A stretch of DNA of 64,000 nucleotides from Clostridiaceae bacterium BRH_c20a (GCA_000961765.1 LADT01000026.1:19574-83573), one strand, 5' to 3'; shown: positions 17,169 through 40,116, counted from the stretch's first letter. Numbers and translations: made by a program. The notes: generated from the sequence alone by a model not told the origin.

Positions 17169-18353
17169 ATGATTGGAATAAGCAAACTTTTAGTCGATAC
17201 AAATAACTTTGGTGATACATTGCGCTACAGTCACAAGTCCCAGGGTACCTGTCATGGGGCTACCCATGATCGAGGTCCTGTGGTAGTTTGGAACTGCACT
17301 AAAACCTGTAACCTAAAATGCATCCACTGCTATGCAGGCTCTGACAGCAAAAAATATGATGGTGAACTGACTACTAAAGAAGCGGTTAAATTTATAGATG
17401 ATTTAAAAAGTTTTAATGTGCCTGTTCTTTTAATTTCTGGTGGGGAGCCTTTTATGCGGGAAGATATCCTCTATTTGGCTGAATATGCAGCCAAATTGGG
17501 TATTCGCAGTACATTTTCCACCAATGGGACTTTAATAACCCGCCAAACTGCAAAAAAACTAAAGGAAATTGGCGTTGGTTATGTGGGTATCAGCCTAGAT
17601 GGTCTGGGAGATAACAATGATAAATTTCGAGGACAAAAAGGTGCTTTTGAGCTGGCCTTAAGGGGTATTGAGAATTGTTTAGCTGAGGGCCAAAAGGTAG
17701 GCTTGAGGTTTACAATTAACCGGCATAATTATCATGAACTTGATGGTATTTTTAATTTAATAGAAGATGTTAAAATTCCTCGGATTTGTTTTTATCATCT
17801 GGTTTACTCAGGGCGGGGCAGTGAAATGATAAAAGAGGATATTTCTCATTCTGAAACTCGACAGGCGCTAGATCTGATTATAGATAAGGTCCGTTATTTT
17901 AAAAATAAGGGATTAGATAAAGAGGTCTTGACAGTTGATAACCATGCTGACGGTGTTTATCTTTATCTAAGGCTCCTTAAGGAAGACCCTCAAAGGGCCA
18001 AAAAGGTCTTGGAATTACTAAGGTTTAATGGTGGTAATCGTACCGGCATAGCCATTGGTGAAGTGGATTGGTTTGGTCATGTGCATCCTGACCAGTTCAC
18101 ACAAAATCATACTTTTGGAAATGTTCGAGAGAATAAATTTGGTGATATCTGGACTGACCCTAAACATCCTATCTTAAATGGACTGAAAAATCGAAAGAAC
18201 TTACTCAAAGGGCGTTGTGCCCAATGTCAGTGGTTAGATGTCTGTAACGGCAACTTTAGGGCTAGAGCCGAGGCCGTGACAGGTGATTTCTGGGAATCTG
18301 ATCCTGCCTGTTATTTGACTGATGAAGAAATTGGTTTGTCCAAGGAGAGATGA
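17169..18353 (+). CDS. ahbC: Fe-coproporphyrin III synthase AhbC (NirJ1-type radical SAM)
   Basis: GDTLRY, PVVVWNCTKTCNLKCIHCY, VLTVDNHADG, VHPDQF, CNGNFRARA..DPACYLTDEEIG. Confidence 0.88.
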   Translation: MIGISKLLVDTNNFGDTLRYSHKSQGTCHGATHDRGPVVVWNCTKTCNLKCIHCYAGSDSKKYDGELTTKEAVKFIDDLKSFNVPVLLISGGEPFMREDILYLAEYAAKLGIRSTFSTNGTLITRQTAKKLKEIGVGYVGISLDGLGDNNDKFRGQKGAFELALRGIENCLAEGQKVGLRFTINRHNYHELDGIFNLIEDVKIPRICFYHLVYSGRGSEMIKEDISHSETRQALDLIIDKVRYFKNKGLDKEVLTVDNHADGVYLYLRLLKEDPQRAKKVLELLRFNGGNRTGIAIGEVDWFGHVHPDQFTQNHTFGNVRENKFGDIWTDPKHPILNGLKNRKNLLKGRCAQCQWLDVCNGNFRARAEAVTGDFWESDPACYLTDEEIGLSKER

Positions 18354-18823
18354 ATATGGATAATATTGATAAGAACCTCTTAAGTATAATCCAAAAGGAT
18401 TTTCCTGTCTGTTCCCGGCCTTTTCAGGAAATAGGTGAAAAGCTGGGAATAACTGAGGATGAAACCGTAGCACGACTCTCTGAGTTAAAGGAACAAGGGA
18501 TAATCCGGCGTTTAGGTGCAATTATGGATTCCCGTAAACTAGGCTATAAGAGTACCCTTTGTGCTATGGAAGTTCCTTCTGATAACTTATCCCAAGTTGT
18601 GAAAGTAGTTAACGACTATATAGGAGTAACTCATAATTACCTGCGCAATCATGATTATAATCTGTGGTTTACATTAATTACTCCCTCACAAGGCCATTTG
18701 GAGAAAACACTTAGGGACATTGAAAAAAGAACAGGACAAAAAGTCTATAACCTTCCTGCCCTAAGATTATTTAAGATCAAGGTGAATTTTCATGTACCGG
18801 GTGTAAAAGGAGGAGAGGGTTAG
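18350..18823 (+). CDS. ahbA: Siroheme decarboxylase subunit AhbA
   Basis: Lrp/AsnC-like fold; GIIRRLG, GVTHNYLR..YNLWFT. Confidence 0.88.
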   Translation: MNMDNIDKNLLSIIQKDFPVCSRPFQEIGEKLGITEDETVARLSELKEQGIIRRLGAIMDSRKLGYKSTLCAMEVPSDNLSQVVKVVNDYIGVTHNYLRNHDYNLWFTLITPSQGHLEKTLRDIEKRTGQKVYNLPALRLFKIKVNFHVPGVKGGEG

Positions 18824-19296
18824 TGTTTAATGACTTGGACAAAGCAATTATCAAAGAAATTCAGGGAGACCTTCCTTTAGTTGCTCAACCTTACCGGGAA
18901 ATTGCCTCACGGCTGGGTATTTCGGAACAAGAACTATTAGAGAAAATTAAAGAGTTTCAGAAACAAGGATATATTCGGCGTTTTGGGGCAGCTCTGCGTC
19001 ATAGGGAAATGGGATTAAAAGCTAATCCCATGATAATTTGGCAGGTGCCGGAAGAAAGGATTGAAGAGGTTGGTAATAAACTGGCTTCTTTTGCTCGAGT
19101 TACCCATTGCTATCATCGGGCAATGCTTCCTAAATTGCAGTACAATGTATTTTCTATGATTCATGCCGAGACGAAAGAAGAATGTTTTAAACTAGCAAAA
19201 GAAATGGCAGAGGTAATAAACATTGAAGACTATAACCTATTGTTTAGTGAAAAGGAACTTAAAAAAACCAGCATGAAATATTTCATGGAAGATTGA
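18823..19296 (+). CDS. ahbB: Siroheme decarboxylase subunit AhbB
   Basis: IRRFGAALRHR, VTHCYHR, FSMIH, ELKKTSMKYF. Confidence 0.88.
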   Translation: MFNDLDKAIIKEIQGDLPLVAQPYREIASRLGISEQELLEKIKEFQKQGYIRRFGAALRHREMGLKANPMIIWQVPEERIEEVGNKLASFARVTHCYHRAMLPKLQYNVFSMIHAETKEECFKLAKEMAEVINIEDYNLLFSEKELKKTSMKYFMED

Positions 19297-19317: not shown

Positions 19318-20280
19318 CTAAGGGTTTAAATATGTATAAAAATATCCTTTTTGATTTTCTTTAAATATGCCGATAGTTTTTTGACTGTCACAGGCATTGA
19401 TTATACCTAAAATGTAACAGTGTGGATAGATGTTTTCCCCATTTTCACCAGTCAAGGGTTCTATAACCTCTAAATCTTTATTGAATACTAAGTAGTAGAT
19501 TTTATTTTGGGGAGTTAAATGGAGGGGGGCATCTATTTTAGTAAAATTGAATTGAAAAGGTTCAATAATAATTGAATTTTTAAAATTTAAAGACTCCTTA
19601 TAATGTCTCTGATAATTGTCCTGAAAATCTTTTGTAATTAGTTCAACAAAAGCTTCCTGGAAAAAAGGAATTTTATTTAAAGTTTCACAGGGGTCCTGGT
19701 TTACTTTTAAATCTTGAAAAATAGAAGAGATTACATTGGGGCAGCAGTCAACTAGTTTTTTAAAAAGCATCCATCGCTCATATCTTGTTTCATAAGGAGT
19801 ATCAAAAAGGGGTTCAGTGCAGTCGAAAACTTCACGATAGTTTTCCAAGGTATAATTTTCAAACCAACGGGCGGAAGACTCTATTACCCAGTTAGAATGG
19901 CTATCTTTGAAGTCGAGTTTATAGGAACTATCCTGGATAAAATGAAAATACTCATGATAAATATTATTAGCTGAAGGTTGGTAGAGGAAAGCTGTATTTA
20001 GTACGGGCAGATAATGACCGCCAAATTTCTGCAATAGAGGTGTTTTAGCCAGAAATTCCGGACACGTTATTATCAAAAAGGGGCTTTTGGGGATTTCTAG
20101 GCTTAGGCTTTGAGCCAGTGTTTTTGCATCAGTAATATTATTTTGAATAACGCTGACTTGAGCTTCAAAAAAGGAAATAATAATTACACCATCTTTATAA
20201 AAAACCGAGGTTAAGGTGAAGAATAAAAGGGGTAATATTATTAAGACAAGTATTATTTTTATTCTGTTCAAACCTCTCAC
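19318..20280 (-). CDS. Membrane-anchored/exported putative zinc metallopeptidase
   Basis: N-terminal hydrophobic segment; HEYFHFIQ followed by WVIESSARWFE (gluzincin-like). Confidence 0.55.
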   Translation of the reverse strand: MRGLNRIKIILVLIILPLLFFTLTSVFYKDGVIIISFFEAQVSVIQNNITDAKTLAQSLSLEIPKSPFLIITCPEFLAKTPLLQKFGGHYLPVLNTAFLYQPSANNIYHEYFHFIQDSSYKLDFKDSHSNWVIESSARWFENYTLENYREVFDCTEPLFDTPYETRYERWMLFKKLVDCCPNVISSIFQDLKVNQDPCETLNKIPFFQEAFVELITKDFQDNYQRHYKESLNFKNSIIIEPFQFNFTKIDAPLHLTPQNKIYYLVFNKDLEVIEPLTGENGENIYPHCYILGIINACDSQKTIGIFKENQKGYFYTYLNP

Positions 20281-20302
20281 CCCTTTCTATACATTTATTA
20301 TA

Positions 20303-20320
20303 TTGTGAATGAAAGAACAA
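20303..20320. promoter_or_regulatory. Putative Rex-like operator
   Basis: TTGTGAA-TGAA-AGAACAA, with a second TTGTGAA half-site at 20326. Confidence 0.3.
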
Positions 20321-20362
20321 TACAATTGTGAATAAAAAGCAGTATGAAAGGTTGGGTACCAA

Positions 20363-21175
20363 TTGGTGGTGAGCAAGCTATACCAGGGCTGGTTAAATGC
20401 AGTAGACAAACATGATTATAAAAAAGCAAGAAAGTTATATATGGCGCTATTAAAAGAGGCACCGTTGACTGCGGGGATTAATTTCCCAATGGGCGTGTGG
20501 TATAAGGAAAAGGAGCTGTTTGAAGAAGCCGAGATGGCTTTTAAGAGGGCACTAATAACAGATCCTGGAATTGTTGCAGATAGTTACTATTACCTGGGAA
20601 ATGTCTCGCGAGAGCAAGGAGACCATGGGCAGGCAATTGCTTATTACCGAGAATCCTTAAAGGTGGACCCTAATTTCTTTGAAGCCCAATATAATTTGGG
20701 GAAAATATATGCCATATTAGGTCAATCAAAAGAGGCATTACAAGAATTCACTAAAGCCTTGGAATTAAGCCCGGAGGATGTAGATACATATATTAATATT
20801 GGTGTGGAATTATCAAATCAGGGGAAAAGAAAAGAGGCTCTTGAAAGCTATGAAAAAGCACTGGAATTAAATCCGGAATCATATTTGGTTTACTCCAATA
20901 TTGGTGTTGAGTTTACTGCTTTAGGAAATTATGAGCAGGGTATTTTATATCATAAAAAAGCTCTTGCCTTAAACTCCTTTTATGCTGATGGGTGGTATAA
21001 TCTGGCCTGTTCCTACGCTCGGGCTGATGATTTTGAAAACTCATTAAAGGCACTAGAACGTTCTATTAGGCTAGATGCAAGCAATATAGAATATGCTAAA
21101 AAGGATCCTGAATTGGATAATATCAAAAGTACCTCCGGATATAAAAGTATTATAAAAAAATTTCCCAGACCATAA
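20363..21175 (+). CDS. TPR repeat protein
   Basis: Multiple 34-aa repeats (YYYLG..A..Y..AL..P); terminal WYNLACSYA..AKKDPELDNI. Confidence 0.9.
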   Translation: MVVSKLYQGWLNAVDKHDYKKARKLYMALLKEAPLTAGINFPMGVWYKEKELFEEAEMAFKRALITDPGIVADSYYYLGNVSREQGDHGQAIAYYRESLKVDPNFFEAQYNLGKIYAILGQSKEALQEFTKALELSPEDVDTYINIGVELSNQGKRKEALESYEKALELNPESYLVYSNIGVEFTALGNYEQGILYHKKALALNSFYADGWYNLACSYARADDFENSLKALERSIRLDASNIEYAKKDPELDNIKSTSGYKSIIKKFPRP

Positions 21176-21225
21176 AGGATATAAAGTATTTTTATGGAAT
21201 ATATATTCAATAAAAATACTTTACA

Positions 21226-21903
21226 ATGAAGAGGGTGTTTGATATGAAAAGTGAAAAATATTTTATTCACCTTTCTTCGGAAGAACAGGAAGTATTTAAA
21301 GAGTATTCCATACCGCTGGTATTTCCAAAAGAACATAATATTTTTTCGCCCGGGGATGTGCCTAATTATATCTATTTTATCGAGGCAGGTAGAATAAAAA
21401 TTTACAGAATTACAATGGATGGAGAATATATAACCATTTCCATCAGACATGCAGGTGAGGTTTGCGGCCTGGCTGAGGCTTTATGCAGCATGCCCCGGCA
21501 ATGTTTTGCTATGACTTTAGAAACAACACGTCTGCAGGCTGTAAAAAAAGAAGACTTTTTTCAAATACTATCTATGGAGCCCCAATTAAACCTAAAAATT
21601 TCTCAAGTTTTAAGCAGGAGGTTACGGCATGCCGAAACAATTATCCACGATCTTGTCTATTATAATGTGGAGGCTAGGCTGGCCAGGCTGCTCCTAAGTA
21701 TGTCTAAACAATGCGGACGCCAATATGAGGATCATATTATCTTAGACATAGTCTTAACCCATAAAGATATTGCCAGCATGATTGGTACTTCTAGGCAGAG
21801 TGTGACTCTTTCTCTGCAACAGTTCAAGGACAGGGGTATTATTGATTATCATAAGCGGGAAATAATAATATTGAATTTCGCCAAACTTCGAAATCTAACC
21901 TAA
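21226..21903 (+). CDS. Crp/Fnr family regulator (RQ-type recognition helix)
   Basis: cNMP-binding-like N-domain; LTHKDIASMIGTSRQSVT HTH. Confidence 0.92.
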   Translation: MKRVFDMKSEKYFIHLSSEEQEVFKEYSIPLVFPKEHNIFSPGDVPNYIYFIEAGRIKIYRITMDGEYITISIRHAGEVCGLAEALCSMPRQCFAMTLETTRLQAVKKEDFFQILSMEPQLNLKISQVLSRRLRHAETIIHDLVYYNVEARLARLLLSMSKQCGRQYEDHIILDIVLTHKDIASMIGTSRQSVTLSLQQFKDRGIIDYHKREIIILNFAKLRNLT

Positions 21904-21928
21904 AACACCTCGTTATGAGGTGTTTTTT
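21902..21928 (+). terminator. Intrinsic terminator
   Basis: AAAACACCTC-GTTAT-GAGGTGTTTTTT. Confidence 0.8.
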
Positions 21929-21968
21929 GTACTTAGGGACTTGTATAACTTTGCCAAAAAATGATTTT

Positions 21969-22057
21969 TGTCAGCTAGCTGACATTTAAAATGCAAGCTA
22001 AGTGGCATTGAATTTGTAAATTACCTGACGGTAGCTCTCCCTTTCACAAGCTATAAT
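21969..22057 (+). promoter_or_regulatory. Two Crp-family sites plus -10 box (class II promoter)
   Basis: Perfect palindrome TGTCA-GCTAGC-TGACA (21969-21984); TGTAA-N6-TGACG (22015-22030); TATAAT (22052-22057). Confidence 0.7.
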
Positions 22058-22203
22058 TAGGTAAGGTATTTATGTTGTCTATAAGCAGCTGAGTTATTGG
22101 CAAAATAAATAATATTTATGAAAGGGGTGTTGATCCGGAAAGTATAGCTTTTATATGTATTTATTTTATTAAGTATTAGGCAAATAAAAGAGGAGGAGAA
22201 TTT

Positions 22204-23688
22204 ATGAGTACTGCAACTGTCAGTATTTCAACTGCCCAAAAACCCAATCTGATTTTTGGTATAGAACCTAAACAATTTTGGGGCCTAATCGCTGGTTTTT
22301 CAATTATGTTCTTGTTCCATTTCGGGCCAGCTTTACCAGGGCTCAAACCAGAAGCCCAGTCAGTATTAGGTGTATTCTTTTGGTTTATGATTATAATGAT
22401 CTGCAATTCCCTGCATAAGTTTGTTGTTGGACTGTTAGCGCCGGGATTTGTAGTTATGCTGGGGAAATTTAAGATACCCGATGCTTTTTCAGCCTTTTCA
22501 AGTGATGCATTCTTTTTAACCGCCGGCGCTTTTGCTTTTGCTGCAATTATGATGGGAACACCACTGGGGAAAAGAATTGCGATTACTATTACCGACTTAT
22601 TCCGGTCAGTTAAGGTAACGAGAATATTTTTCGGGTTATCTGCCGCTGATTTTACCATCAGTGGATTCCTTCCTACTGTGGCAGAAACAGGCTTATTACT
22701 ACCTTTGGCTAAAGGTTTTTCAAGTCTAATGTCCGGCAAGGAACATTTGCCAGAGACTCAAAGAATAAATAAAGGCTTATTCTTATTGATTTGCGGTTTG
22801 ATGCCTCTTTTTACCAGTATGATTATTCTTACTGCTCACTTCCCTAATATCCTGATGGCAGGGATGCTTGAAGAAGCAATTAAAATTAAAGTAACTTGGA
22901 TGGACTGGTTAATATTAAATATTCCCTTATGGGGACTAATGCCCGTCGCCTTTTTCTATACTGTTTGGTATTTTAAGCTGTGGAACGTGGAAATTCCTGG
23001 AGCAGCTGATGAACTTCCCAAGATGAAAGCTGAATTAGGACCCACTACTTGGTCGGAAAAATGGGCCTTAGGTTCACTGATTATTTGTGTATTCCTGTGG
23101 ATAACAGAAAAAACTCTCCATAATTTTAGCACCGGCATGGTTGCTCTTTTACTGGTTCTTTTAGTCTTCCTGCCCTTCAGCAGAATTAAATACAGTCAAA
23201 TTGGCCCACATATTATGTGGGATACCTGGATTTTATTAGGTGGTGCAATTTCCATGGGAACCGCACTTCATAAATCAGGCGCTGTTCAATGGATGGTTGA
23301 TTTGGCACTGGCTCCTATGGGAGATACAATTATTGCCCTCCCGCCTATTATTATTTTAATTATTGTTGTTATAGCCACTCAAATTGCTAGAGCTGGTATT
23401 GTAAGTGCTGCAGCCATGGGTGCAATGTTCATACCGCTTTGTATAACACTGGCACCGGAATTAGGCTTCAACATTTTGCCTTTTACTATGATTGTTGTAA
23501 ACTGTTTAAGCTACTCATTCTTTCTCCCCATGTCGATCACTGCTTTCTTTATTGCTTGGGGTGCAGTAGATATGTCAATGGGTGAGGTAATGAAATTTGG
23601 TGCTCCACTATCTTTAATCTGTAATATTTATACAATTTTAACAATGTCCATGTGGTTACCTTTAATGGGTTATCCCTTGATGCAATAG
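22204..23688 (+). CDS. SLC13/DASS family anion transporter
   Basis: About 12-13 TM; TPLGKRIA, ILTAHFPN, ITWMDW-like, WILLGGAISMG motifs. Confidence 0.85.
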   Translation: MSTATVSISTAQKPNLIFGIEPKQFWGLIAGFSIMFLFHFGPALPGLKPEAQSVLGVFFWFMIIMICNSLHKFVVGLLAPGFVVMLGKFKIPDAFSAFSSDAFFLTAGAFAFAAIMMGTPLGKRIAITITDLFRSVKVTRIFFGLSAADFTISGFLPTVAETGLLLPLAKGFSSLMSGKEHLPETQRINKGLFLLICGLMPLFTSMIILTAHFPNILMAGMLEEAIKIKVTWMDWLILNIPLWGLMPVAFFYTVWYFKLWNVEIPGAADELPKMKAELGPTTWSEKWALGSLIICVFLWITEKTLHNFSTGMVALLLVLLVFLPFSRIKYSQIGPHIMWDTWILLGGAISMGTALHKSGAVQWMVDLALAPMGDTIIALPPIIILIIVVIATQIARAGIVSAAAMGAMFIPLCITLAPELGFNILPFTMIVVNCLSYSFFLPMSITAFFIAWGAVDMSMGEVMKFGAPLSLICNIYTILTMSMWLPLMGYPLMQ

Positions 23689-23715
23689 AATTTTTCTTCA
23701 AATGGGGGAGATAAA

Positions 23716-25482
23716 ATGTGTGCTGAAAAGGTTTTACCGAAAACAATCGATGAAATAGTACTTGAGGTTTTAGAAACAGATTTTCTGATTATCGGTGCCG
23801 GTAATGCAGGCTGCTTTGCAGCAATTGAAGCTAAAAGGCAAAATCCTAATTTAAAGGTTACCCTCATGGAAAAGGCCTATATTGACCGTAGCGGCTGTCT
23901 GGCAGCAGGTATGGATGCTATCAATACTTATCTGAAAAAAGGCAGGACTATAGAAGAGTTTATTAAGTGGAGCCGTTCTCAGGCTGGAGGATTAATTAGG
24001 GAGGACCTAGCTATTAAGGTAGCGGAAAACCTGAATAAGCCGGTGGAAGAGTGGGAACAGTGGGGACTGCCTATAAAAAAGGATGAGGATTCAGAAGAGT
24101 ATAAAACCAGAGGGAAATGGGATATTACCATTCAAGGCGAGTCCATGAAGCCAATTATTGCTGAGAAAGTTAGAGAGTACGGCTGTGAAATATTAAACAG
24201 AGTAACTGCAACTAACGTTTTGATCAGTAAGGGGAAAGTAGTAGGAGCTGCCGGCTTTGGAGTAAGAAACGGAAAGATGTATGTAGTTAAAGCCAAAGCA
24301 ACCTGTATTGCTACCGGTGGGGCTGCCGGTTTGTATAAGACCTATCAGAACGATGGTATTGATAGCCATCATCAGTTGTGGTATTGCCCCTTTAATACAG
24401 GTACAGGTTATGCCATGGGAATCCGTGCAGGAGCGGAAATGACTACCTTTGAAATGCGCTGGTGTGCAACAAGAACTAAGGATTTCAACGGCCCAATCGA
24501 CACCATTTCTGTTGGCTATAAAACCCCTATGATAAATGCTAAGGGAGAAAAAATACTAGAGAAAAGATATGCCCATCTAGGAGGGGAAGCAGCACCTAGG
24601 TATATCCGGGCTAATGCCCCTATGGAGGAATGGTTGGAAGGCCGGGGTCCTTGCTTTGTGGATACCCGGAATATGAGTGATGAGGATATCAAACAAATGA
24701 AGACCGATTATCTAAATGAAAGACCAACTTATGTTTTATTTATGGCTGCCAGGGGGCAGGAGTTAAAAGAGGAGCCAATAGAAATTTATGGTAATGACCC
24801 TTATATTGTGGGCGGTCATACAGCAAGCGGCTATTGGGTAGACACAAATTGGTCCACAACATTACCGGGCTTATTTGCCTGTGGTGATGTTTCCGGCGGA
24901 GTGCCTAATAAATTTGTTGGCGGCTGTGCAGCAGAAGGCTTATTAGCTGCCCAGGGTGCTGTTAAATATATTGCAGGATTGGAAAACCTGCCAGAGGTTG
25001 ATGAAAAGCAAATTGAAGCAGAAAAGCTCAGAGTTTATGCTCCTTTGTTCCGTATGGAGCAGGAAGGTGACGGAGTTCAGTGGCGGGAAATGGAAGAGAG
25101 GATGCAGCGGCTGATGGATGAGTACGCTGGGGGAGTTCATCAATTTTTCCGGATGAGTGAAGAACAGCTAAAATATGCCCTAAAGAATATTAAAATACTT
25201 CAGAGGCAGGTTGAATATTTAATAGCTAAAGATTTTCATGACCTGATGAGCTGTCATGAAGTAATTGATCGGCTGGATGTAGCAGAAGTATTAATCCATC
25301 ATCTTTTATTCCGTAAAGAAACCCGCTGGCCAGGCTGGCAAACCAGGGTTGATTATCCGCAGGTAAATAATGAGGAGTATGACTGTTTTGTCAATTCTTG
25401 TAGAAATCAAGAAACAGGTGAAATAGAAATGTATAAGCGCCCTTATGAACAAATCCTACCTGGTGAGAGGTTACAACCTTAA
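23716..25482 (+). CDS. aprA: Adenylylsulfate reductase-like flavoprotein, alpha subunit
   Basis: FAD motif IIGAGNAG, RSGCLAAGMDAIN, WYCPFNTG, GGHTASGYW, RKETRWPG. Confidence 0.88.
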   Translation: MCAEKVLPKTIDEIVLEVLETDFLIIGAGNAGCFAAIEAKRQNPNLKVTLMEKAYIDRSGCLAAGMDAINTYLKKGRTIEEFIKWSRSQAGGLIREDLAIKVAENLNKPVEEWEQWGLPIKKDEDSEEYKTRGKWDITIQGESMKPIIAEKVREYGCEILNRVTATNVLISKGKVVGAAGFGVRNGKMYVVKAKATCIATGGAAGLYKTYQNDGIDSHHQLWYCPFNTGTGYAMGIRAGAEMTTFEMRWCATRTKDFNGPIDTISVGYKTPMINAKGEKILEKRYAHLGGEAAPRYIRANAPMEEWLEGRGPCFVDTRNMSDEDIKQMKTDYLNERPTYVLFMAARGQELKEEPIEIYGNDPYIVGGHTASGYWVDTNWSTTLPGLFACGDVSGGVPNKFVGGCAAEGLLAAQGAVKYIAGLENLPEVDEKQIEAEKLRVYAPLFRMEQEGDGVQWREMEERMQRLMDEYAGGVHQFFRMSEEQLKYALKNIKILQRQVEYLIAKDFHDLMSCHEVIDRLDVAEVLIHHLLFRKETRWPGWQTRVDYPQVNNEEYDCFVNSCRNQETGEIEMYKRPYEQILPGERLQP

Positions 25483-25515
25483 ATTCATAAATGTTGGACA
25501 AAGGGGGAATTAGTA

Positions 25516-25833
25516 GTGCCGCCAAAAATTAACTTTAATAAGTGTGATGGCTGTAGGGCAGAAGAAGAACCACTATGTGAACAAATATGCCCTGGTAACT
25601 TAATGACTTTGCAAGATGGAAAAGCCCATTGTCGGGGTGACCGTGACTGCTGGGACTGCATGTCTTGCACCAAAATATGTCCTCAAGGTGCAATTGAAAC
25701 TAGGCTTCCCTACCAGCTAGGGTATTATCCGGCAAAACTGATACCCAGAGTAGGTACCAATAAAATTATGTGGACCTGTGTGGATATTAACGGTAAGGTT
25801 GAACGATTTGTGGTTAAGACGAGAAATGACTAA
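25516..25833 (+). CDS. aprB: APS reductase-like beta subunit (2x[4Fe-4S]), short form
   Basis: KCDGC..CEQICP, CWDCMSCTKICP, IMWT..GKVERF; lacks the long C-terminal tail. Confidence 0.85.
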   Translation: MPPKINFNKCDGCRAEEEPLCEQICPGNLMTLQDGKAHCRGDRDCWDCMSCTKICPQGAIETRLPYQLGYYPAKLIPRVGTNKIMWTCVDINGKVERFVVKTRND

Positions 25834-25839
25834 TTAGAG

Positions 25840-27042
25840 GTGGAAAAAATGACTGTAGGAGTAATACTTTGCCGTTGCAACGGGATGATGGAAAATCTGG
25901 ATTGGGTGGCTATAGCAGATTTTCTAAATAAGAAAAAGGATGTAGTTGATACTCTTATTCTAGATATTGCCTGTAGTCCTCAGAGTCAGCAGGATATGGT
26001 GGAGTTTATAGAAAGCCAAAAAATTGACCGCTTTGTTGCAGCGGCTTGTTCTCCTCTAGTTAAAGGCGGTCTGTTTCAGGCCTTAGCCCGCAAAATGGGT
26101 ATGCCAAACCAACATCTAGAACAGGTAAACATAAGGGAACAGTGTTCATGGGCTATTCAAGAATCAGGTCCTGCCCTAGAAAATGCTAAAATAAAGTTAA
26201 ACATGGCATTGAAACGTCTAAGTAAAGTCAAAGATCTAGGTCACTGGCAGTTTAATAAGGCATATATCAATACATTAAGATGTGATAAGTGCAAAAGGTG
26301 TATTGAGGAATGCCCTAATGAGGCTATTTCACTTGGAGTCGATGGGTTTCCTTTTGTTGACGGAAATAAATGTGTTAAGTGCGGGGTTTGTCTGGGGGGA
26401 TGTCCCTTAGGAATTATCTCCCTGCCTAACTTCCGCTTAGAAGAAATTAACGGGATGATTGAAGAGGCAGCTAAATCTAAGAGCAAGCCCAACCTTATTG
26501 GTTTATTTTGCCCCCATGCTTATGAAGAGGCAGATGTTGTTAGTGCTAAGGGGTGCCCTGGACTAGCTAACTTAAATGTAATTTCCGTTCCCTGTTCTGG
26601 CGCGGTAAATATGGCTCTAGTAAACGATGCCCTCGCGACAGGCATTGACGGTGTAATTATTGCAGGCTGTGAGCATAGCCAGTGTCAGCTTCGTAGGGGA
26701 AATGATTATGCTAAGAAAAGAATTGCTAATCAGCAGGAGACTTTAGAAGAGATGTTTTTGGAGAAGGAACGGCTTATTTATATGGCTTTTGACGAAAATT
26801 ATACATCCTCAGCAGAAATAGATGATAAGATTTGTTCAAAATGTGGAATTTGTGAGCATGTATGTCCTTTTAGGGCTATTTCTTACTCCCCGGAAGAGGA
26901 TAGAATGTTTATAAATCCACAGGGCTGCCGCTCTTGCGGTACCTGCTCCGCTTCTTGCCCAGCGGGTGCTGTTAAGCTACCTGAGGCTTGCGATGAAGAA
27001 ATAATGGGAGCTATTGATTTGCTTATAGGGGAGGGTTATTGA
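25840..27042 (+). CDS. QmoB/HdrA-related Fe-S protein: HdrA-N + ferredoxin + MvhD + ferredoxin, no FAD domain
   Basis: VILCRC..ACS..AACSP..NIREQCSW; CDKCKRCIEECP, CVKCGVCLGGCP; MvhD-like VPCSG..GIDGVIIAGC..QC; CSKCGICEHVCP, CRSCGTCSASCP. Confidence 0.75.
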   Translation: MEKMTVGVILCRCNGMMENLDWVAIADFLNKKKDVVDTLILDIACSPQSQQDMVEFIESQKIDRFVAAACSPLVKGGLFQALARKMGMPNQHLEQVNIREQCSWAIQESGPALENAKIKLNMALKRLSKVKDLGHWQFNKAYINTLRCDKCKRCIEECPNEAISLGVDGFPFVDGNKCVKCGVCLGGCPLGIISLPNFRLEEINGMIEEAAKSKSKPNLIGLFCPHAYEEADVVSAKGCPGLANLNVISVPCSGAVNMALVNDALATGIDGVIIAGCEHSQCQLRRGNDYAKKRIANQQETLEEMFLEKERLIYMAFDENYTSSAEIDDKICSKCGICEHVCPFRAISYSPEEDRMFINPQGCRSCGTCSASCPAGAVKLPEACDEEIMGAIDLLIGEGY

Positions 27043-27476
27043 TGGCTGTCAAAATTATTTTCTGCAAAAACCAGAGATGCAGAACAGATCAGTTGGACTT
27101 GACTAGATTTAGGTGTGACCTTAAAAAGGCAAATCAGGAGTTTATTGAACTTCCTGATTTATGTATAAATGTAGAAAAGGTAAACTTAATTTACGGTGAT
27201 TTGGTCATCTGCGGGTGTGATGAAAAAGTATTCAAAAGCAGGTTAGAGAAGAGTGGGAAAAAAATAGTCTTTGCTCCCATTAGAGAAGAATCTTTATGGC
27301 TTTATCAGGATAGAGAAGCCGGTTATAGGCAGGCTCTTTTACAGATAAAGCTGGCCCTAAATCGGCTTAAATTTAAAAGAAAGAATGATAAGCTACCTTT
27401 AAATAGCTTTAATAAAAAAATTAATGATTACTTAGAAATCGTGCATGAATTAGGACCAAATCCTTTTAAAGTTTAA
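27039..27476 (+). CDS. Small protein resembling a degenerate HdrA/Qmo N-terminal domain
   Basis: IFCKNQRC, PDLC, VICGC, APIREESLW..IKLALNRL parallels the N-domain of the upstream gene. Confidence 0.5.
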   Translation: MMAVKIIFCKNQRCRTDQLDLTRFRCDLKKANQEFIELPDLCINVEKVNLIYGDLVICGCDEKVFKSRLEKSGKKIVFAPIREESLWLYQDREAGYRQALLQIKLALNRLKFKRKNDKLPLNSFNKKINDYLEIVHELGPNPFKV

Positions 27477-27487
27477 AATATAGTTAA

Positions 27488-27538
27488 TGTGGGGTGGTTC
27501 TTGCTTAGATCAATTAAGCAAGAACCACCCCGCTTTTT
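27488..27538 (+). terminator. Strong intrinsic terminator ending the apr operon
   Basis: GGGGTGGTTCTTGCTTA..TAAGCAAGAACCACCCC followed by TTTTT. Confidence 0.85.
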
Positions 27539-27621
27539 GCTTTGGTAAGGCTGAATAACTATGGGTAAAACTAGATTCTTTTTCATACTGTAGGTTCTGC
27601 AACGTAGTTACATTAATATAG

Positions 27622-27638
27622 ATACTATAGGGGGGTAT
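27622..27638 (+). promoter_or_regulatory. CsoR-type operator
   Basis: ATAC-TATA-GGGGG-GTAT with G-tract just upstream of TG-T-TATAAT, ahead of copA. Confidence 0.6.
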
Positions 27639-27691
27639 ATGTTATAATGGATCATGAGGGTATAACTTAAGCAGAAATAGGAGGTAAAATT

Positions 27692-30106
27692 ATGGCTAAA
27701 GAAAGAACTATTAATATACCTGTTTTAGGAATGACCTGTGCTGTTTGTGCTACTAGAATAGAAAAAAAGGTTCCAAAATTAGAAGGAATTATTGATGTCA
27801 ACGTTAATTTTGGAGCTGAAAAGGCCCAAGTAAAATATGATGCCGATGTTGTGCAGTTAAAGGATGTTGTCGCAAAAATAATAGATACAGGCTATGATGT
27901 CCCCAAGGATAAGGTTGAGCTAAAAATCCAGGGAATGACCTGTGCAGCTTGTTCTACCCGGATTGAGCGGGGCCTAAATAAAATGGACGGTATCTTAGAG
28001 GCTAACGTTAATCTGGCTTTAGAAAAGGCTAATATTGCCTATGTCCCTGGTTTGGTATCGGTACAGGAAATTAAAAAGAAAATTGAAGATATTGGTTATC
28101 AGATTCTGGATTTTGAGGCTGGAGCTACAGGTGATAAAGAACAGGAAGCGCGGCAGAAGGAGATAAGAAGGCAACGTAATTTATTTATAATTTCAGCCCT
28201 ACTATCCTTACCATTATTATCTATGATGTTTATTGAGTGGTTTGGGCTTCATGAGGTTGCCCCCCATTTTCTTATGGACCCAGTTTTCCAGTTTGTTTTA
28301 ACAACACCTATTCAGTTTGGTGTGGGAAGTTATTTTTATATTGATGCATATAAGGCCTTGAAAGGCGGCAGTGCAAATATGTCAGTGCTGGTAGCTTTAG
28401 GTACATCAGCTGCGTACTTTTATAGTGTAGCTGCTACCTTCTTTAGTGATTTAGTAGGTACAAGCCATGTTTATTACGAAACAGCCGCTATAATTATTAC
28501 CCTAATTATTTTAGGAAAGCTTTTAGAAGCCCTAGCAAAAGGGAGAACATCAGAAGCAATTAAAAAGCTGATGGGTCTACAGCCCAAAACTGCCCGGGTA
28601 ATCAGAAACGACCAAGAAGTAGATATACCAATAGAAGAGGTTGTTGTTGGTGATATTATCGTAGTAAAGCCTGGGGAGAAACTTCCGGTAGATGGTATTG
28701 TTGTAAGCGGAACATCTAGTGTTGATGAATCAATGCTCACCGGTGAAAGCCTGCCCGTGGATAAAAAAGAAGGCAGTGAGGTAATCGGAGCTACCATAAA
28801 TAAACACGGCAGCTTTAAGTTTAAAGCCACAAAGGTAGGAAAAGAGACTGCTCTGGCTCAAATAGTCAGGATAGTGGAGGAAGCCCAAGGCTCAAAAGCT
28901 CCAATTCAAAGAATGGCTGATATAATATCTGCTTATTTTGTTCCTGTAGTTATTGCTATTTCAGTTGTTACCTTTTTGAGCTGGTATTTTATCGTGGAGC
29001 CCGGGGAATTTACCAAAGCACTATTACCTGCTATCGCTGTTCTTGTTATAGCCTGTCCCTGTGCTTTAGGTTTGGCGACACCTACCTCAATTATGGTTGG
29101 AACAGGTAAAGGTGCGGAGAATGGTATTCTTATCAAAGGTGGGGAACATTTAGAAAATGCCCATAAAATTAATACGGTAGTTCTAGATAAAACCGGAACC
29201 ATTACTAAAGGTGAGCCAGAGGTTACTGATATAATTGCAACCTTTATAGCTAAAGAAGAACTTCTAAGATTAGCGGCCAGTGCTGAGAGAAATTCTGAGC
29301 ATCCCCTAGCCGAGGCTATAGTAGGTTATGCCCGGAATCAAGGAATAGAGCTGAGGGAGGCAATTGATTTTAAAGCTATACCCGGTCATGGAATAGAAGT
29401 AAAGGTTGATGGCAAGTTAATTTTTCTGGGCAATCGGAAATTAATGAAAGATAAAGAAATAAATATTGAAAAATTAGCTATGATTGCTGATAATTATGAA
29501 GGGCAAGGCAAAACCGCTATGCTTGTAGCTGTTGATGGCAAAGCAGCAGGGGTTATTGCTGTAGCCGATACTGTAAAGAAAAGTTCCCTAAGTGCTATAA
29601 AAGAGTTAAAAGAAATGGGAATAGAAGTTATAATGATTACAGGGGATAACAAAAAAACTGCTCTGGCTATCGCAAATCAGGTAGGAATTGATAAGGTATT
29701 AGCAGAAGTATTACCGGAGAATAAGGCAGAAGAAGTGGACAAGCTTAAAAAAGCAGGGAAAAAGGTAGCTATGGTAGGGGACGGAATAAATGATGCTCCA
29801 GCCTTAGTTACCGCAGATGTGGGCATTGCCATTGGTACAGGGACAGATATAGCCATGGAGGCCGGAGACATAACACTAATTAGCGGTGATTTGCATGGTA
29901 TAGTTGCGGCTATAAAACTAAGTAAGGCTACCATGGTCAATATAAAGCAAAACCTATTCTGGGCATTGTTTTATAATAGCTTAGGTATCCCGGTTGCCGC
30001 TTTTGGCTTACTATCACCTGTAATTGCAGGTGCTGCTATGGCTTTTAGCTCTGTATCTGTTGTTTCTAATGCCTTGAGATTAAAAAGGTGGAAGTATCAA
30101 CATTAA
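27692..30106 (+). CDS. copA: Copper-translocating P1B-1 ATPase
   Basis: Two GMTCxxC HMA domains, [24 protein letters not shown] and MAFSS motifs. Confidence 0.95.
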
Positions 30107-30139: not shown

Positions 30140-31438
30140 ATGGTTTCAGGATTAGTCCAAGAATGGAATAAGGCAGAATTGCCTAAAATGGTTAGGGTCA
30201 GGCAGAAATTTGCTGGGTCGAAGATCAAAGATATACGAGAGGAAATGAGAGATCAGTTTAGTGCATTAAAGCTCTCAGAAAGGCTAAAGCCAGGAGCTAA
30301 AATTGCAGTTGCAGTAGGCAGCAGAGGTATCCATGATATAGATAAGATAACTAAAGAAGTTATTGAAATTTTAAAGGATCACAATTTTGAACCTTTTATT
30401 ATCCCGGCTATGGGCAGTCATGGTGGTGCTGCAGAAGAAGGTCAAGTTAAGGTTTTAGCGGAATACGGTATTACTGAAGATACTATGGGTGTATCTATTA
30501 AGTCTTCCCTTGATGTAGTTGAGGTTGGAACTGTGCGTGTTCCCTCGGTTCCCGAGGAATTTCCCGTATATGTAGATAAAATTGGCTATAATTCCGATGG
30601 TATTGTAGTAATAAATAGAGTTAAACCCCATACCTTATTTAGACATGATGTGGAAAGCGGTTTAATGAAGATGCTGACTATCGGTCTGGGAAAACATCAA
30701 GGAGCAACTATTGCCCACCTCCAGGGCTTTGATATTTTTGGAGAAATAATCCCAGCGGTAGGGGAAGAAATTCTAAAAAAGGCACCTATCTATTTTGGAG
30801 TAGGGATTGTCGAAAATGCTTTTGAAGAAACAGCAGAAATCAGAATTGTTCCCCGAGAGGATTTCATGCAAGCTGATCAGGAACTTTTAGTAAAGGCAAG
30901 AAAGCTTATGGGCAGGATCATGCTTCCGGAGATTGATGTATTAATTATTAAAGAAATAGGCAAAGAGTTTAGTGGTGATGGGATGGATCCTAATGTAGTT
31001 GGCCGGTATTTAAATCCCCATATTAAGCCTGACATTAAGGCACAAAAAATTGTAGTTCTGGATTTATCGGAAAAAACTAAAGGCAATGCAACTGGTATAG
31101 GCTCCGCTGATGTTATAACTAAAAGGATGTATGACAAAATTGATCTTAAGAAAACCTATATCAATATTTACACCTCTACTGCCTTACCGGGCGGTCGGAT
31201 ACCAATAACAATAGATACTGATGAGGAAGCTATTCAGGTAGCCTTGACTTCCTGTGTACGTGTTTATCCAGGTAAATATAAAGTGGTCTACATTCCTAAT
31301 ACTCTCTATTTAGAAGAGTTATGGGTTTCAGAGCCACTAGCCCAAACATTGAAAGATTCACCAGATTTCGAGATCATAGGTGAACCGGAAGCCATAGAAT
31401 TTGATGCAGAAGGCAATATTGTTAATTTGCCCTTTTAA
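30140..31438 (+). CDS. Lactate racemase (LarA)-superfamily / DUF2088-like protein
   Basis: AVGSRGI, PAMGSHGG, NRVKPHT, ESGLMKM, GDGMDPNVVGR. Confidence 0.7.
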   Translation: MVSGLVQEWNKAELPKMVRVRQKFAGSKIKDIREEMRDQFSALKLSERLKPGAKIAVAVGSRGIHDIDKITKEVIEILKDHNFEPFIIPAMGSHGGAAEEGQVKVLAEYGITEDTMGVSIKSSLDVVEVGTVRVPSVPEEFPVYVDKIGYNSDGIVVINRVKPHTLFRHDVESGLMKMLTIGLGKHQGATIAHLQGFDIFGEIIPAVGEEILKKAPIYFGVGIVENAFEETAEIRIVPREDFMQADQELLVKARKLMGRIMLPEIDVLIIKEIGKEFSGDGMDPNVVGRYLNPHIKPDIKAQKIVVLDLSEKTKGNATGIGSADVITKRMYDKIDLKKTYINIYTSTALPGGRIPITIDTDEEAIQVALTSCVRVYPGKYKVVYIPNTLYLEELWVSEPLAQTLKDSPDFEIIGEPEAIEFDAEGNIVNLPF

Positions 31439-39100: not shown

Positions 39101-40000
39101 TTGACCTCGGGAATTATTTTTAATATTCAGCGGTATTCCATCCACGATGGTCCTGGTATTCGTACTACTGTTTTTTTAAAGGGCTGTCCTTTAAAATGCT
39201 GGTGGTGTCATAATCCGGAAAGTCAGAATATCCATCAGGAAATAGCTTTTTGGCCTGACAGGTGCTTGGATTGCGGTGATTGCCTAAAAGCCTGTGCAGA
39301 TAAAGCGTTAACAAGAAAAAACGAGGGCTTTTTAACTGACAAAAATAAGTGCCTGCTATGTGCTAGCTGTGCAAAAGCTTGTTTTACTGAGGCTAGGGAG
39401 CTAGTCGGTAAACAAATTACTATTGAAGAGGTAATGGAGGAAATTAAGCAGGATATTATTTTTTATGACCAATCAGGTGGTGGGGTTACTTTTTCAGGAG
39501 GAGAGCCTTTAATGCAGGGGCAGTTTTTACAGGAGCTTCTGCTGGCCTGCCAAAAGGAATATATCCATACGACGGTAGATACCTCAGGCTATGCCCCTTG
39601 GGAGGTATTAAAAGGGATAAGTAAGCTAACAAACCTATTTTTATATGACATTAAGCTTATAGATGAAGAAAAACACATAAAATTTACTGGAGTGTCCAAT
39701 AGGCTGATTTTAGATAACTTAAAAAGACTTCTTGCAGAAAAAACTAGAATAATAGTCCGTATTCCTATTATTCCTAACATAAATGATGATGTCGATAATA
39801 TTCTCAAAACTGGTAGGTTGATGCGAAGTTTAGGCTTGAAGGAGGTAAATCTATTACCCTATCATGATAGTGCAACTGGCAAGTATGAAAGACGGGCAGA
39901 GACGTATCATTTAATGCAGGTAAAAACTCCTACAAAGGAAAAAATGCAGGACATATCTTCCATATTAGCTGATTTGGGTCTAAATGCAGTGCAGCAATAA
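39101..40000 (+). CDS. Glycyl-radical enzyme activating protein (HypD activase)
   Basis: HDGPGIRT, GCPLKCWWCHNPE, ferredoxin insert, GGVTFSGGEP. Confidence 0.92.
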   Translation: MTSGIIFNIQRYSIHDGPGIRTTVFLKGCPLKCWWCHNPESQNIHQEIAFWPDRCLDCGDCLKACADKALTRKNEGFLTDKNKCLLCASCAKACFTEARELVGKQITIEEVMEEIKQDIIFYDQSGGGVTFSGGEPLMQGQFLQELLLACQKEYIHTTVDTSGYAPWEVLKGISKLTNLFLYDIKLIDEEKHIKFTGVSNRLILDNLKRLLAEKTRIIVRIPIIPNINDDVDNILKTGRLMRSLGLKEVNLLPYHDSATGKYERRAETYHLMQVKTPTKEKMQDISSILADLGLNAVQQ

Positions 40001-40116
40001 TTAATACAACTATGGCGAAAAAATAATTCACAATTATTAGCTAACAATTGATTAATAAAGATCTTTTTTGTAATTTTTACTCTATATGAAAAGCTATTGA
40101 ACTGGAGGTTAATAGA

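Follow-up and report, generated by a model that had tools for sequence, protein, structure and literature searches.

A DASS-Linked, Crp-Associated Branch of the AprAB-Like Family in DsrAB-Bearing Firmicutes and Its Possible Role in Sulfur Anion Reduction

The operon described here lies in a 64,000-nucleotide stretch of the genome of Clostridiaceae bacterium BRH_c20a (GCA_000961765.1 LADT01000026.1:19574-83573; this whole stretch is called the window), in which genes were called from open reading frames (ORFs) and family scans. It encodes a DASS-family anion carrier, two proteins resembling the adenosine 5'-phosphosulfate (APS) reductase subunits AprA and AprB, and two further proteins. The operon is real and conserved and is not an artifact. 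Its AprA-like protein represents a conserved, selected branch of the AprAB-like family that is linked to a transporter and a regulator, coexists with canonical and assimilatory Apr proteins, travels with DsrAB, and persists in genomes with no detectable route to make or use APS. The AprAB-like family itself is known; what is new is this unstudied branch of it. We document the anatomy of the module, its clade, the signature of its substrate pocket, the contents of the host genomes, and the co-occurrences among these genes, and from them we infer the substrate, direction, and partners of the reductase. The reading that we tentatively favor is a reductase, fed by ferredoxin or Hdr-type proteins, that takes an imported sulfur anion, and not APS or 3'-phosphoadenosine 5'-phosphosulfate (PAPS) made by the cell, and frees sulfite from it for use by DsrAB, with thiosulfate as the leading guess.

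The five genes of the operon are co-oriented and tightly packed, and they are flanked by a unique 16-bp palindrome on the 5' side and a terminator with a 20-pair stem on the 3' side. The features are as follows.

21226..21903, + strand: Crp/Fnr-family transcription regulator (PF00027, 58.4 bits; PF13545 [HTH_Crp_2], 69.7 bits)
21902..21926, + strand: terminator-like hairpin ending the regulator gene (11-pair stem, then T-rich sequence)
21969..21984, no strand: perfect 16-bp palindrome TGTCAGCTAGCTGACA, 220 bp 5' of the DASS start codon
22204..23688, + strand: divergent DASS/SLC13-family anion carrier, 494 aa (Pfam Na_sulph_symp and TIGR00785 scans)
23716..25482, + strand: AprA-like flavin adenine dinucleotide (FAD) subunit, 588 aa (NF005331)
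25516..25833, + strand: AprB-like subunit of 105 aa that lacks the tail and has two [4Fe-4S] motifs (TIGR02060)
25840..27042, + strand: 400-aa iron-sulfur electron-transfer protein (gene 4), with an HdrA N-terminal-type Cys domain, a ferredoxin domain, an MvhD-like domain, and a ferredoxin domain
27039..27476, + strand: 145-aa paralog of the HdrA N-terminal-type domain (hhalign to the gene 4 N terminus, 97.6% probability, E of 2.8e-12)
27489..27533, + strand: intrinsic terminator (20-pair stem with 10 GC pairs, then a T run)

The ORFs and family scans agree with a preliminary description of this DNA as to the five co-oriented genes, the position of aprA before a short aprB, the AprA length of 588 aa, and the presence of Qmo/Hdr-derived parts. 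The operon is not unique but is one form of a module that is present in at least 54 species-level genomes. These contribute 54 related loci, with AprA identities of 67 to 95%, and the hosts are Desulfosporosinus, Desulforamulus, Desulfofundulus, Desulfovirgula, Desulfoscipio, Moorella/Neomoorella, Pelosinus, Anaerospora, Acididesulfobacillus, Desulforudis, and many subsurface metagenome-assembled genomes (MAGs). In a phylum sample of 401 genomes, 70 have a homolog at an E of ≤1e-100, and the identities are separated by a gap: the clade (11 genomes, including the window's own) is at 71% or above, and the rest are at 56% or below. In a FastTree tree of 74 rows, the 53 module rows fall on a single branch with a stem length of 0.5 and a support value of 100, the support values being Shimodaira-Hasegawa-like only and the placement of a long-branch row (L081) that joins the clade stem being unsure. 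The window's AprA-like protein belongs to a separate clade of the AprAB-like family.

Among the 52 loci with a called aprA ORF, aprA is immediately preceded by the DASS gene in 47 and followed by it in 1, a gene of the Crp family is upstream in 46, and aprB is downstream of aprA in 49, with aprB detected by tblastn in the remaining three. The core Crp-DASS-AprA-AprB is conserved in ~47 of the 52 loci. We compared these with 20 non-clade loci, which are the best-scoring non-clade matches except for three that were passed over; Sat and/or CysC or CysDN adjoin aprA in 10 of the 20, and this DASS gene adjoins it in none. The earlier statement that the operon fits neither the sat-aprBA-qmo nor the aprAB-cysDN/cysC layout is thereby borne out. 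Loci of the assimilatory type have Sat/CysC or CysDN neighbors in 10 of the 12 sampled. The AprA-like gene is under strong purifying selection among Sat-less genomes (ratio of nonsynonymous to synonymous substitution rates of 0.05 relative to the closest relative, L053, both genomes being Sat-less; synonymous sites are saturated at larger distances). A third AprA-like clade (L063 to L070; 8 of the 20 non-clade loci, at 50 to 56% identity) has the signature M-N-Y-R-R-W-N...T-G-L...Y/F. Its neighbors are housekeeping genes (GMP synthase, Trp repressor, PrsW, DUF711/ACT, MTHFR, and gyrase), and neither a sulfur gene nearby nor a functional lead was found for these eight loci.

The window genome (4.51 Mb, 100% complete, 3.9% contamination) has no recognizable means of activating sulfate. 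The preliminary description had reported that the window contains no sulfate-activating enzyme; sat, cysD, cysC, and sulfite reductase genes are indeed absent from the 64 kb, and for sulfate activation the observation extends to the whole genome. ATP sulfurylase (PF01747) and APS kinase (PF01583) have zero matches in it, tblastn with the Sat, CysC, and CysD proteins of relatives finds nothing at an E of ≤1e-5, the CysD model gives only a 25-bit match, and two weak PAPS_reduct stretches lie in a single 429-aa frame. Canonical AprA is not matched in the window genome, nor does it contain a candidate for the GalT-type APAT (PF01087). Genomic sat and qmoABC, which would have pointed to an ordinary secondary aprAB cluster, were looked for, and neither is in the window genome. 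For sulfite reductase the earlier statement is true of the window but not of the genome, which carries dsrA (552 bits; cut-off, 393), dsrB, and dsrC together on another contig. The genome also has 12 molybdopterin-oxidoreductase matches. Three more AprA/Frd-like paralogs of ~560 aa, with 28 to 33% identity, are encoded at C81:78843-80501, C19:119103-120734, and C19:128626-130209.

The same pattern recurs in part of the clade, for which 49 other genomes were scanned together with the window's, or 50 in total (5 of the 54 loci, all on short contigs, were omitted). Sat is present in 32 of the 49 others. Among the 17 in which it was not detected, 4 have CysD-type matches and 2 have a clear APS kinase. 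Thirteen others and the window genome thus make 14 clade genomes without Sat and CysD, including records titled Neomoorella stamsii, Moorella naiadis, and Anaerospora hongkongensis. APS kinase is also absent from 13 of the 14, with a borderline score of 20.7 bits in G046, and a GalT-type APAT candidate was found in 4 of the 14 and not in the other 10. Canonical AprA scores above its cut-off in 27 of the 50 clade genomes and in none of the 18 that lack Sat. A Pelosinus sp. record (G038) has an assimilatory-type aprA (NF005331, 948 bits) beside cysD and cysN (L085, G038:C1:463000-470000) and the DASS-linked module elsewhere, which makes it a natural test case for two different roles. Because canonical AprA coexists with the clade protein in 27 genomes and assimilatory AprA coexists with it in G038, the clade AprA-like protein is a paralog of canonical AprA and not a substitute for it. 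DsrA exceeds its cut-off in 46 of the 50 clade genomes, and in the phylum sample it is present in 11 of 11 module genomes versus 50 of 390 others, a contrast that is inflated by relatedness. A Chloroflexi MAG with the module (G010, the genome of L019) has two long Sat-containing frames of 881 and 898 aa, which may represent a Sat fusion protein, and no canonical AprA match.

The AprA-like protein passes NF005331 (657.4 bits; cut-off, 557) and fails TIGR02061 (411.5 bits; cut-off, 641.75). Its best solved relative is the alpha subunit of 8A8O, the PAPS reductase MtPAPSR of Methanothermococcus thermolithotrophicus (E of 6e-164, 550 bits), followed by A. fulgidus AprA (E of 4e-107) and the AprA of 3GYX (E of 5e-70). 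The AprB-like protein scores 83.5 bits with TIGR02060, under the cut-off of 135.65. It aligns with residues 1 to 103 of the 150 residues of A. fulgidus AprB (E of 4.9e-24), the C-terminal tail being missing, and its match to the MtPAPSR beta subunit is weaker (E of 1.3e-16). Trp46 of the AprB-like protein is the equivalent of Trp-B48, and this Trp and the eight cluster Cys residues are invariant in 14 of 14 ortholog rows.

Pocket residues were mapped in A. fulgidus numbering through the AprA alignment and were judged from alignments and not from model coordinates; their roles are those given in parts of PMC2211403 and PMC10322725. The counts refer to 53 clade rows, with one row shortened at three positions and the Asn74 position missing from L054. 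N74, W234, R265, H398, D361, and R317 are conserved across the clade. The catalytic and FAD-bending residues Asn74, Trp234, Arg265, and His398 correspond to N70, W222, R253, and H368 of the window protein, and W144 of dissimilatory AprA is also retained. The adenine clamp is kept, with Arg317 (R298) invariant and Leu278 replaced by V in the window protein and by V, L, or I across the clade. In contrast, the four APS ribose/phosphate contacts (Tyr95, Val273, Gly274, and His446) and Gln145 are replaced, in each case by one residue throughout the 53 rows: Tyr95 is Trp (W85 of the window protein), Gln145 is Asp (D136), Val273 is Ile (I261), Gly274 is Asp (D262), and His446 is Asn (N398). Glu141 is Arg in the clade, as it is in the PAPS type. 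The PAPS-conferring residues Lys120, Arg121, and Ser122 (as described in parts of PMC10322725) correspond to K134, W135, and D136, so that one of the three is kept; W135 and D136 are identical in 53 of 53 rows, and the K134 position varies among K, R, and Q. Further, the T-G pair of the PAPS type is I-D and its Lys is Asn in the clade, while assimilatory loci show the MtPAPSR pattern instead (Tyr, x-Arg-Ser/Asn, Thr-Gly, Lys). Thirty-one positions, none of them Cys, are fixed in the clade and unseen in 21 outgroup rows. Over ten compared channel positions the net charge is ~+1 for the clade AprA-like protein, ~0 for A. fulgidus, and +5 for MtPAPSR, which argues against PAPS as the substrate but not against APS. 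To judge from the alignments, the sulfuryl-transfer chemistry looks to have been retained, with every described ribose/phosphate contact replaced.

Several known systems are close to the operon. The AprAB-like family, according to the DiSCo paper (Neukirchen and Sousa 2021), comprises 63 organisms, lacks the AprB tail, has sat, cysD, cysC, asr, and sodium:sulphate symporters as neighbors, and is proposed to serve assimilation (PMC8477390); the preliminary description needs correcting here, since the family, including the nearby symporters, has already been described. PAPS-dependent activity is reported for its one characterized member, MtPAPSR (PDB 8A8O), which showed no reverse activity (PMC10322725). 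The operon shares with these proteins a short alpha subunit, aprA before aprB, a tail-less beta subunit, FAD plus two [4Fe-4S] clusters, and the catalytic residues. It differs in that its clade stands apart with its 31 clade-specific invariant residues and K/W/D rather than K/R/S; in that the clade adjoins DASS, Crp, and Hdr/Mvh-type modules and not Sat/CysC/CysDN; and in that the clade hosts bear Dsr and 14 of them are without sulfate activation. With dissimilatory AprBA it has in common the four catalytic and FAD-bending residues, which imply flavin-N5 sulfite chemistry, and the equivalents of D361, W144, and Trp-B48. Unlike AprBA, it has the order aprA-aprB, no AprB tail, TIGR02061 and TIGR02060 scores under the cut-offs, replacements at Y95, V273, G274, H446, and Q145, and no sat in its genome. 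The literature consulted on the module itself offers only general AprAB-like descriptions, with supplementary items (e.g., Table S9 of PMC8477390 and Fig. S10 of PMC7174415) that may name hosts, and no mention of the cluster was found in the host papers (A. acetoxydans proteomics and dissimilatory nitrate reduction to ammonium, D. reducens proteomics, and Moorella caeni transcriptomics).

The genes that follow aprB vary among relatives and fall into five types.

Type A (the window's form), 8 loci, and 1 more that lacks the small ORF: 400-aa protein followed by the 145-aa ORF
Type B, 5 loci: full-length HdrA-MvhD fusion, HdrC-like protein, and CCG-domain HdrB-like protein
Type C, 12 loci: HdrA-like protein, with a small ferredoxin in 10 and none in 2
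Type D, 5 loci: 572-aa HdrA fragment, MvhD, FrhB-like protein, Fer4_22 protein, and FAD/NAD/2Fe-2S protein
Type E, 21 loci: nothing recognizable, with several loci stopping at a contig edge

We take the last two type D proteins to resemble AsrA and AsrB, respectively. The downstream modules of relatives (HdrA-MvhD plus HdrC and HdrB, or MvhD plus Fer4_22 and an NAD/FAD-binding protein) suggest that the enzyme works in the reductive direction. As in AsrABC and HdrABC-MvhD, such soluble modules (HdrA-MvhD/HdrC/HdrB or Fer4_22 plus FAD/NAD/2Fe-2S) supply a terminal sulfur reductase with electrons at the NAD(P)H or ferredoxin level; here, however, the terminal enzyme is an AprA-type flavoprotein rather than a siroheme protein or a CCG-domain disulfide reductase, and the window's electron module is without a flavin domain. 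Likeness to Qmo lies in the electron feeder being built of HdrA/MvhD-type parts. Unlike QmoABC and QmoAB-HdrCB, the operon has neither the QmoA/B FAD domain nor membrane QmoC, and gene 4 has in common with QmoABC just its N-terminal Cys domain, ferredoxin domains, and MvhD-like parts.

Gene 4, whose true start is likely the ATG at 25849, matches the HdrA N terminus over residues 5 to 137 and residues 571 to 745 of HdrA2 over residues 140 to 313, with FlpD/MvhD over 226 to 319. Two Fer4 pairs form two 2x[4Fe-4S] ferredoxin domains, one on each side of the MvhD-like domain, and the Pfam scan found no HdrA-type FAD or Pyr_redox domain in this protein. In 9 of 9 orthologs, 25 Cys residues are invariant, in groups of 5, 8, 4, and 8. 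A predicted complex of AprB and gene 4 has an ipSAE of 0.63 (best control, 0.00), with at least 87% of contacts shared between runs and a partner pLDDT of at least 81; a score of 0.63 is reached by 58 of 80 solved complexes and by 2 of 110 mismatched pairs, counts that hold roughly here since our own alignments were used. The predicted contacts join AprB residues 76 to 105 with the MvhD-like part of gene 4. AprA was not part of the prediction, and the same AprB surface may also serve AprA. The prediction lends support to a putative docking of gene 4 on AprB. The 145-aa ORF has no match in Pfam or NCBIfam, and its family has an invariant C-terminal GPNPFK motif. The Cys of its IREQC motif is lost in the window copy (IREESLW) and in L013 (IREEILW), while the other seven orthologs have IREQC or IREEC; since one putative cluster ligand is gone, the 145-aa protein of the window genome may no longer bind a cluster. 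We rejected it as the counterpart of the type D MvhD protein at the same position, because the BLASTP similarity is confined to a short C-terminal "GPN" stretch.

The DASS carrier is presumed to be the importer or exchanger of the reductase substrate. It scores 144.5 bits with Pfam Na_sulph_symp (cut-off, 27) and 169.6 bits with TIGR00785, under the cut-off of 198.6, and it is remote from solved proteins, the closest being VcINDY (E of 9e-14). The solved DASS relatives retrieved, VcINDY and plant DiT, are dicarboxylate carriers. In DASS carriers the SNT hairpin motifs bind Na+ and substrate. The two SNT motifs of VcINDY align with PTV and SAA in the operon's carrier, and because these motifs are replaced and the protein is remote from solved carriers, it may be an exchanger or a carrier with an unusual substrate. 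Within the clade, the DASS genes form two subtypes with only ~30% identity between them, compared with ~70% for AprA across the clade.

The upstream regulator has both a cNMP-binding domain and a Crp-type helix-turn-helix, as the Crp/Fnr definition requires, and alignment did not reveal an FNR-type N-terminal Cys cluster in it. The hairpin at 21902 to 21926 closes the regulator gene, so that the operon has its own start, and the gap of ~300 bp between the regulator and the DASS gene holds the palindrome. This palindrome, TGTCAGCTAGCTGACA, occurs once in the window (0.19 matches expected at three or fewer mismatches) and is a candidate operator for the Crp-family regulator; in relatives, 29 of 47 regions between the Crp and DASS genes contain a TGTnA-N6-TnACA palindrome. 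TGTCA-N6-TGACA has just 7 sites genome-wide, and no sulfur-related genes were seen beside the other intergenic ones, which adjoin a PrdR-like regulator and a Liv-type ABC transporter, hypothetical genes, or an ORF at the start of contig C84. The terminator at 27489 to 27533 is real. Thus, of the Crp promoter and strong terminator proposed earlier, the terminator stands and the palindrome is unique, but sigma-70-like hexamers are at chance level (17 found versus 18.7 expected). Rfam gave no match for a riboswitch or leader RNA at an E of ≤1 in 20000 to 29000.

Beyond the terminator lie a CopA-type Cu P-type ATPase gene with two HMA domains (27692 to 30106) and a gene for a LarA-like "nickel pincer cofactor-dependent isomerase, group 22" (30140 to 31438; 521 bits; cut-off, 400). 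Both in the window and in its three closest relatives (L053, L009, and L010), the LarA-like gene comes after the operon. The CopA-type gene separates it from the terminator in the window and in L053, is missing from this position in L009 and L010, and is apparently an insertion into a conserved neighborhood. In L009 (13713 to 17665) genes for an NMT1/NitT-TauT-type ABC transporter, comprising a binding protein, an ATPase, and a permease, come after the LarA-like gene, and L010 (13936 to 17968) has the same three ABC gene families by clustering. These neighbors could reflect a link to 2-hydroxy acids or sulfonates, or they could be coincidental. A few kilobases upstream, at 17169 to 19296, an NirJ1-like radical SAM protein and an AhbA/AhbB siroheme decarboxylase indicate a siroheme-dependent heme route, and at 39101 to 42477 there is a glycyl-radical enzyme (trans-4-hydroxy-L-proline dehydratase, 1,414 bits; cut-off, 1,100), with its activase present. 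We saw no sulfur link in the window flanks (AhbAB/NirJ1, TPR, CopA, LarA-like, asparagine synthase, and the hydroxyproline dehydratase glycyl-radical enzyme), and the upstream genes in relatives are unrelated (amino acid ABC transporter, RsbRD_N, SpoIIIAH, MgsA, and protoglobin-MCP).

In the reading that we favor, the operon would be substrate inducible and would encode a cytoplasmic reductase of dissimilatory sulfur metabolism. The Crp-family regulator would act at the palindrome, and the DASS carrier would import a divalent sulfur-containing anion. N5 of reduced FAD in the AprA-like protein would attack the sulfuryl group, giving an FAD-sulfite adduct from which sulfite is released. Electrons would pass from ferredoxin-level donors to the gene 4 polyferredoxin/MvhD-like protein, to the two AprB clusters, and to the conserved Trp, and the sulfite would be consumed by the DsrAB/DsrC encoded elsewhere in the genome. 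On this reading the substrate would be neither APS nor PAPS of the cell's own making, since an activating enzyme could not be detected and that part of the pocket which receives the ribose and phosphate has been rebuilt. By its redox values, a low-potential acceptor is suited to ferredoxin-level feeders. Thiosulfate or a similar S-sulfonate, which would yield sulfide and sulfite, is the leading candidate both for this reason and because, according to parts of the literature, Moorella spp. generally reduce thiosulfate and not sulfate or sulfite (PMC7174415) and a Moorella relative reduces thiosulfate without phs genes by a pathway called unknown (PMC7306483). For the clade as a whole, it is possible, though doubtful, that the protein is a new kind of sulfite-generating terminal reductase, of the AprA type, that requires no ATP-activated nucleotide and cleaves an imported inorganic or organic sulfuryl compound by means of ferredoxin/Hdr modules. 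Candidate substrates are thiosulfate, another S-sulfonate, and, as the most extreme case, sulfate itself, unactivated and receiving its proton from the new Asp residues, a version to which we give hardly any credence.

Several observations weigh against the favored reading. Sat is present in 32 of 49 hosts. The R317 clamp and its hydrophobic partner (L278>V) are kept in the clade, which fits an APS-specific enzyme, as does a channel charge that is near that of A. fulgidus APS reductase and far from that of MtPAPSR. The Asp that replaces Gln145 might simply hold the ribose 3'-OH and keep PAPS out, which would also fit an APS-specific enzyme, and the two new channel Asp residues would be awkward for a small dianion like thiosulfate. 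In addition, the 12 molybdoenzyme matches may include a Phs-type thiosulfate reductase, and rhodanese-type thiosulfate cleavage needs no Phs-type enzyme. Just 2 Moorella species records are among the loci, even though the genus generally reduces thiosulfate (part of PMC7174415). The co-occurrence with Dsr is confounded by kinship, most hosts being Desulfotomaculia-type Firmicutes. Accordingly, a soluble APS-specific reductase, fed by ferredoxin, NADH, or Hdr, with the DASS carrier importing sulfate and APS coming from Sat or an unrecognized activating enzyme, is a strong rival, even if we judge it on the unlikely side. The clade protein matches dissimilatory AprA in its catalytic residues, in the Arg of the adenine clamp, and at D361 and W144, and AprB is nearer to A. 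fulgidus AprB than to the MtPAPSR beta subunit. The combination of aprAB with HdrA-like and HdrCB proteins parallels the aprBA-qmoAB-hdrCB layout described for Gram-positive sulfate reducers in part of PMC4148979, and the DASS family contains sulfate carriers (part of PMC5840216). However, such an enzyme would need an undiscovered activating enzyme in the 14 genomes without Sat and CysD, which include the 100%-complete window genome, 13 of which lack APS kinase and 10 of which gave no GalT-type APAT candidate. All four ribose/phosphate contacts are replaced, and an APS reductase would be redundant in the 27 genomes with canonical AprA. The earlier suggestion of APS or PAPS made elsewhere thus lacks a known source in 14 genomes, and of the readings offered in the preliminary description it is the different imported anion that we favor, by inference.

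The anion could also be an organic dianion resembling a C4-dicarboxylate (sulfolactate, sulfopyruvate, cysteate, or 3-sulfopropanoate), handled by succinate dehydrogenase/fumarate reductase or aspartate oxidase chemistry or by reductive desulfonation. AprA belongs to the fumarate reductase superfamily (part of PMC10322725), the solved DASS relatives carry dicarboxylates, many of the 31 clade-specific residues are of the kinds found where polar organic ligands bind (Asp, Trp, Tyr, Asn, or Arg), and the LarA-like and ABC transporter genes lie nearby. We nevertheless regard this as improbable, given the 550-bit match to a characterized PAPS reductase, the retention of the AprA-specific FAD-bending N74 and W234, the absence of a desulfonating lyase in or next to the operon, and the confinement of the LarA and ABC neighbors to the closest clade, with those in the window beyond the terminator. 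A sulfate importer together with a PAPS or APS reductase of the ordinary assimilatory (MtPAPSR/clostridial) kind would be consistent with the NF005331 score, the closest solved match (8A8O), and the proposal of assimilation, with sodium:sulphate symporters nearby, in part of the DiSCo paper (PMC8477390). It is very improbable: Sat, CysDN, and CysC were not found in the window genome, only one of the three PAPS-type residues is kept and an Asp stands where the 3'-phosphate would lie, the true assimilatory type mostly adjoins Sat/CysC or CysDN and coexists with the module in G038, and the hosts make sulfide by Dsr. We give equally little weight to the reverse reaction suggested earlier, in which sulfite and AMP would give APS for sulfite detoxification or disproportionation. 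The hosts handle sulfite, and dissimilatory APS reductases are reversible (part of PMC2211403), but MtPAPSR shows no reverse activity in the part of the study that describes it (PMC10322725). The window genome yielded neither Sat nor a candidate GalT-type APAT by which sulfate could be released and energy conserved, no enzyme making or using APS was found there, and the partner modules resemble low-potential donors and look reductive in relatives. Electrons from the reverse reaction, at about -60 mV, are too weak to reduce ferredoxin or NAD+.

APS reductase genes are used to track sulfate reduction and sulfur oxidation, and AprAB-like genes are taken to indicate sulfur assimilation; this branch, which is common in deep-subsurface and sediment Firmicutes with DsrAB and has its own importer, regulator, and electron feeders, fits neither. 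If the clade enzyme is an APS reductase after all, its Sat-less hosts must hide an unknown sulfate-activating enzyme. If it is instead a sulfite-generating terminal reductase, it would give Sat-less DsrAB organisms an ATP-free entry to the Dsr pathway. With thiosulfate as its substrate, it would close the gap noted for Firmicutes that reduce thiosulfate but have no phs genes, and the direct-sulfate version would overturn the rule that sulfate needs activation. Should the substrate prove to be something other than a nucleotide, a missing step would be added to the anaerobic sulfur cycle, and aprA-like matches in metagenomes would need to be read anew.

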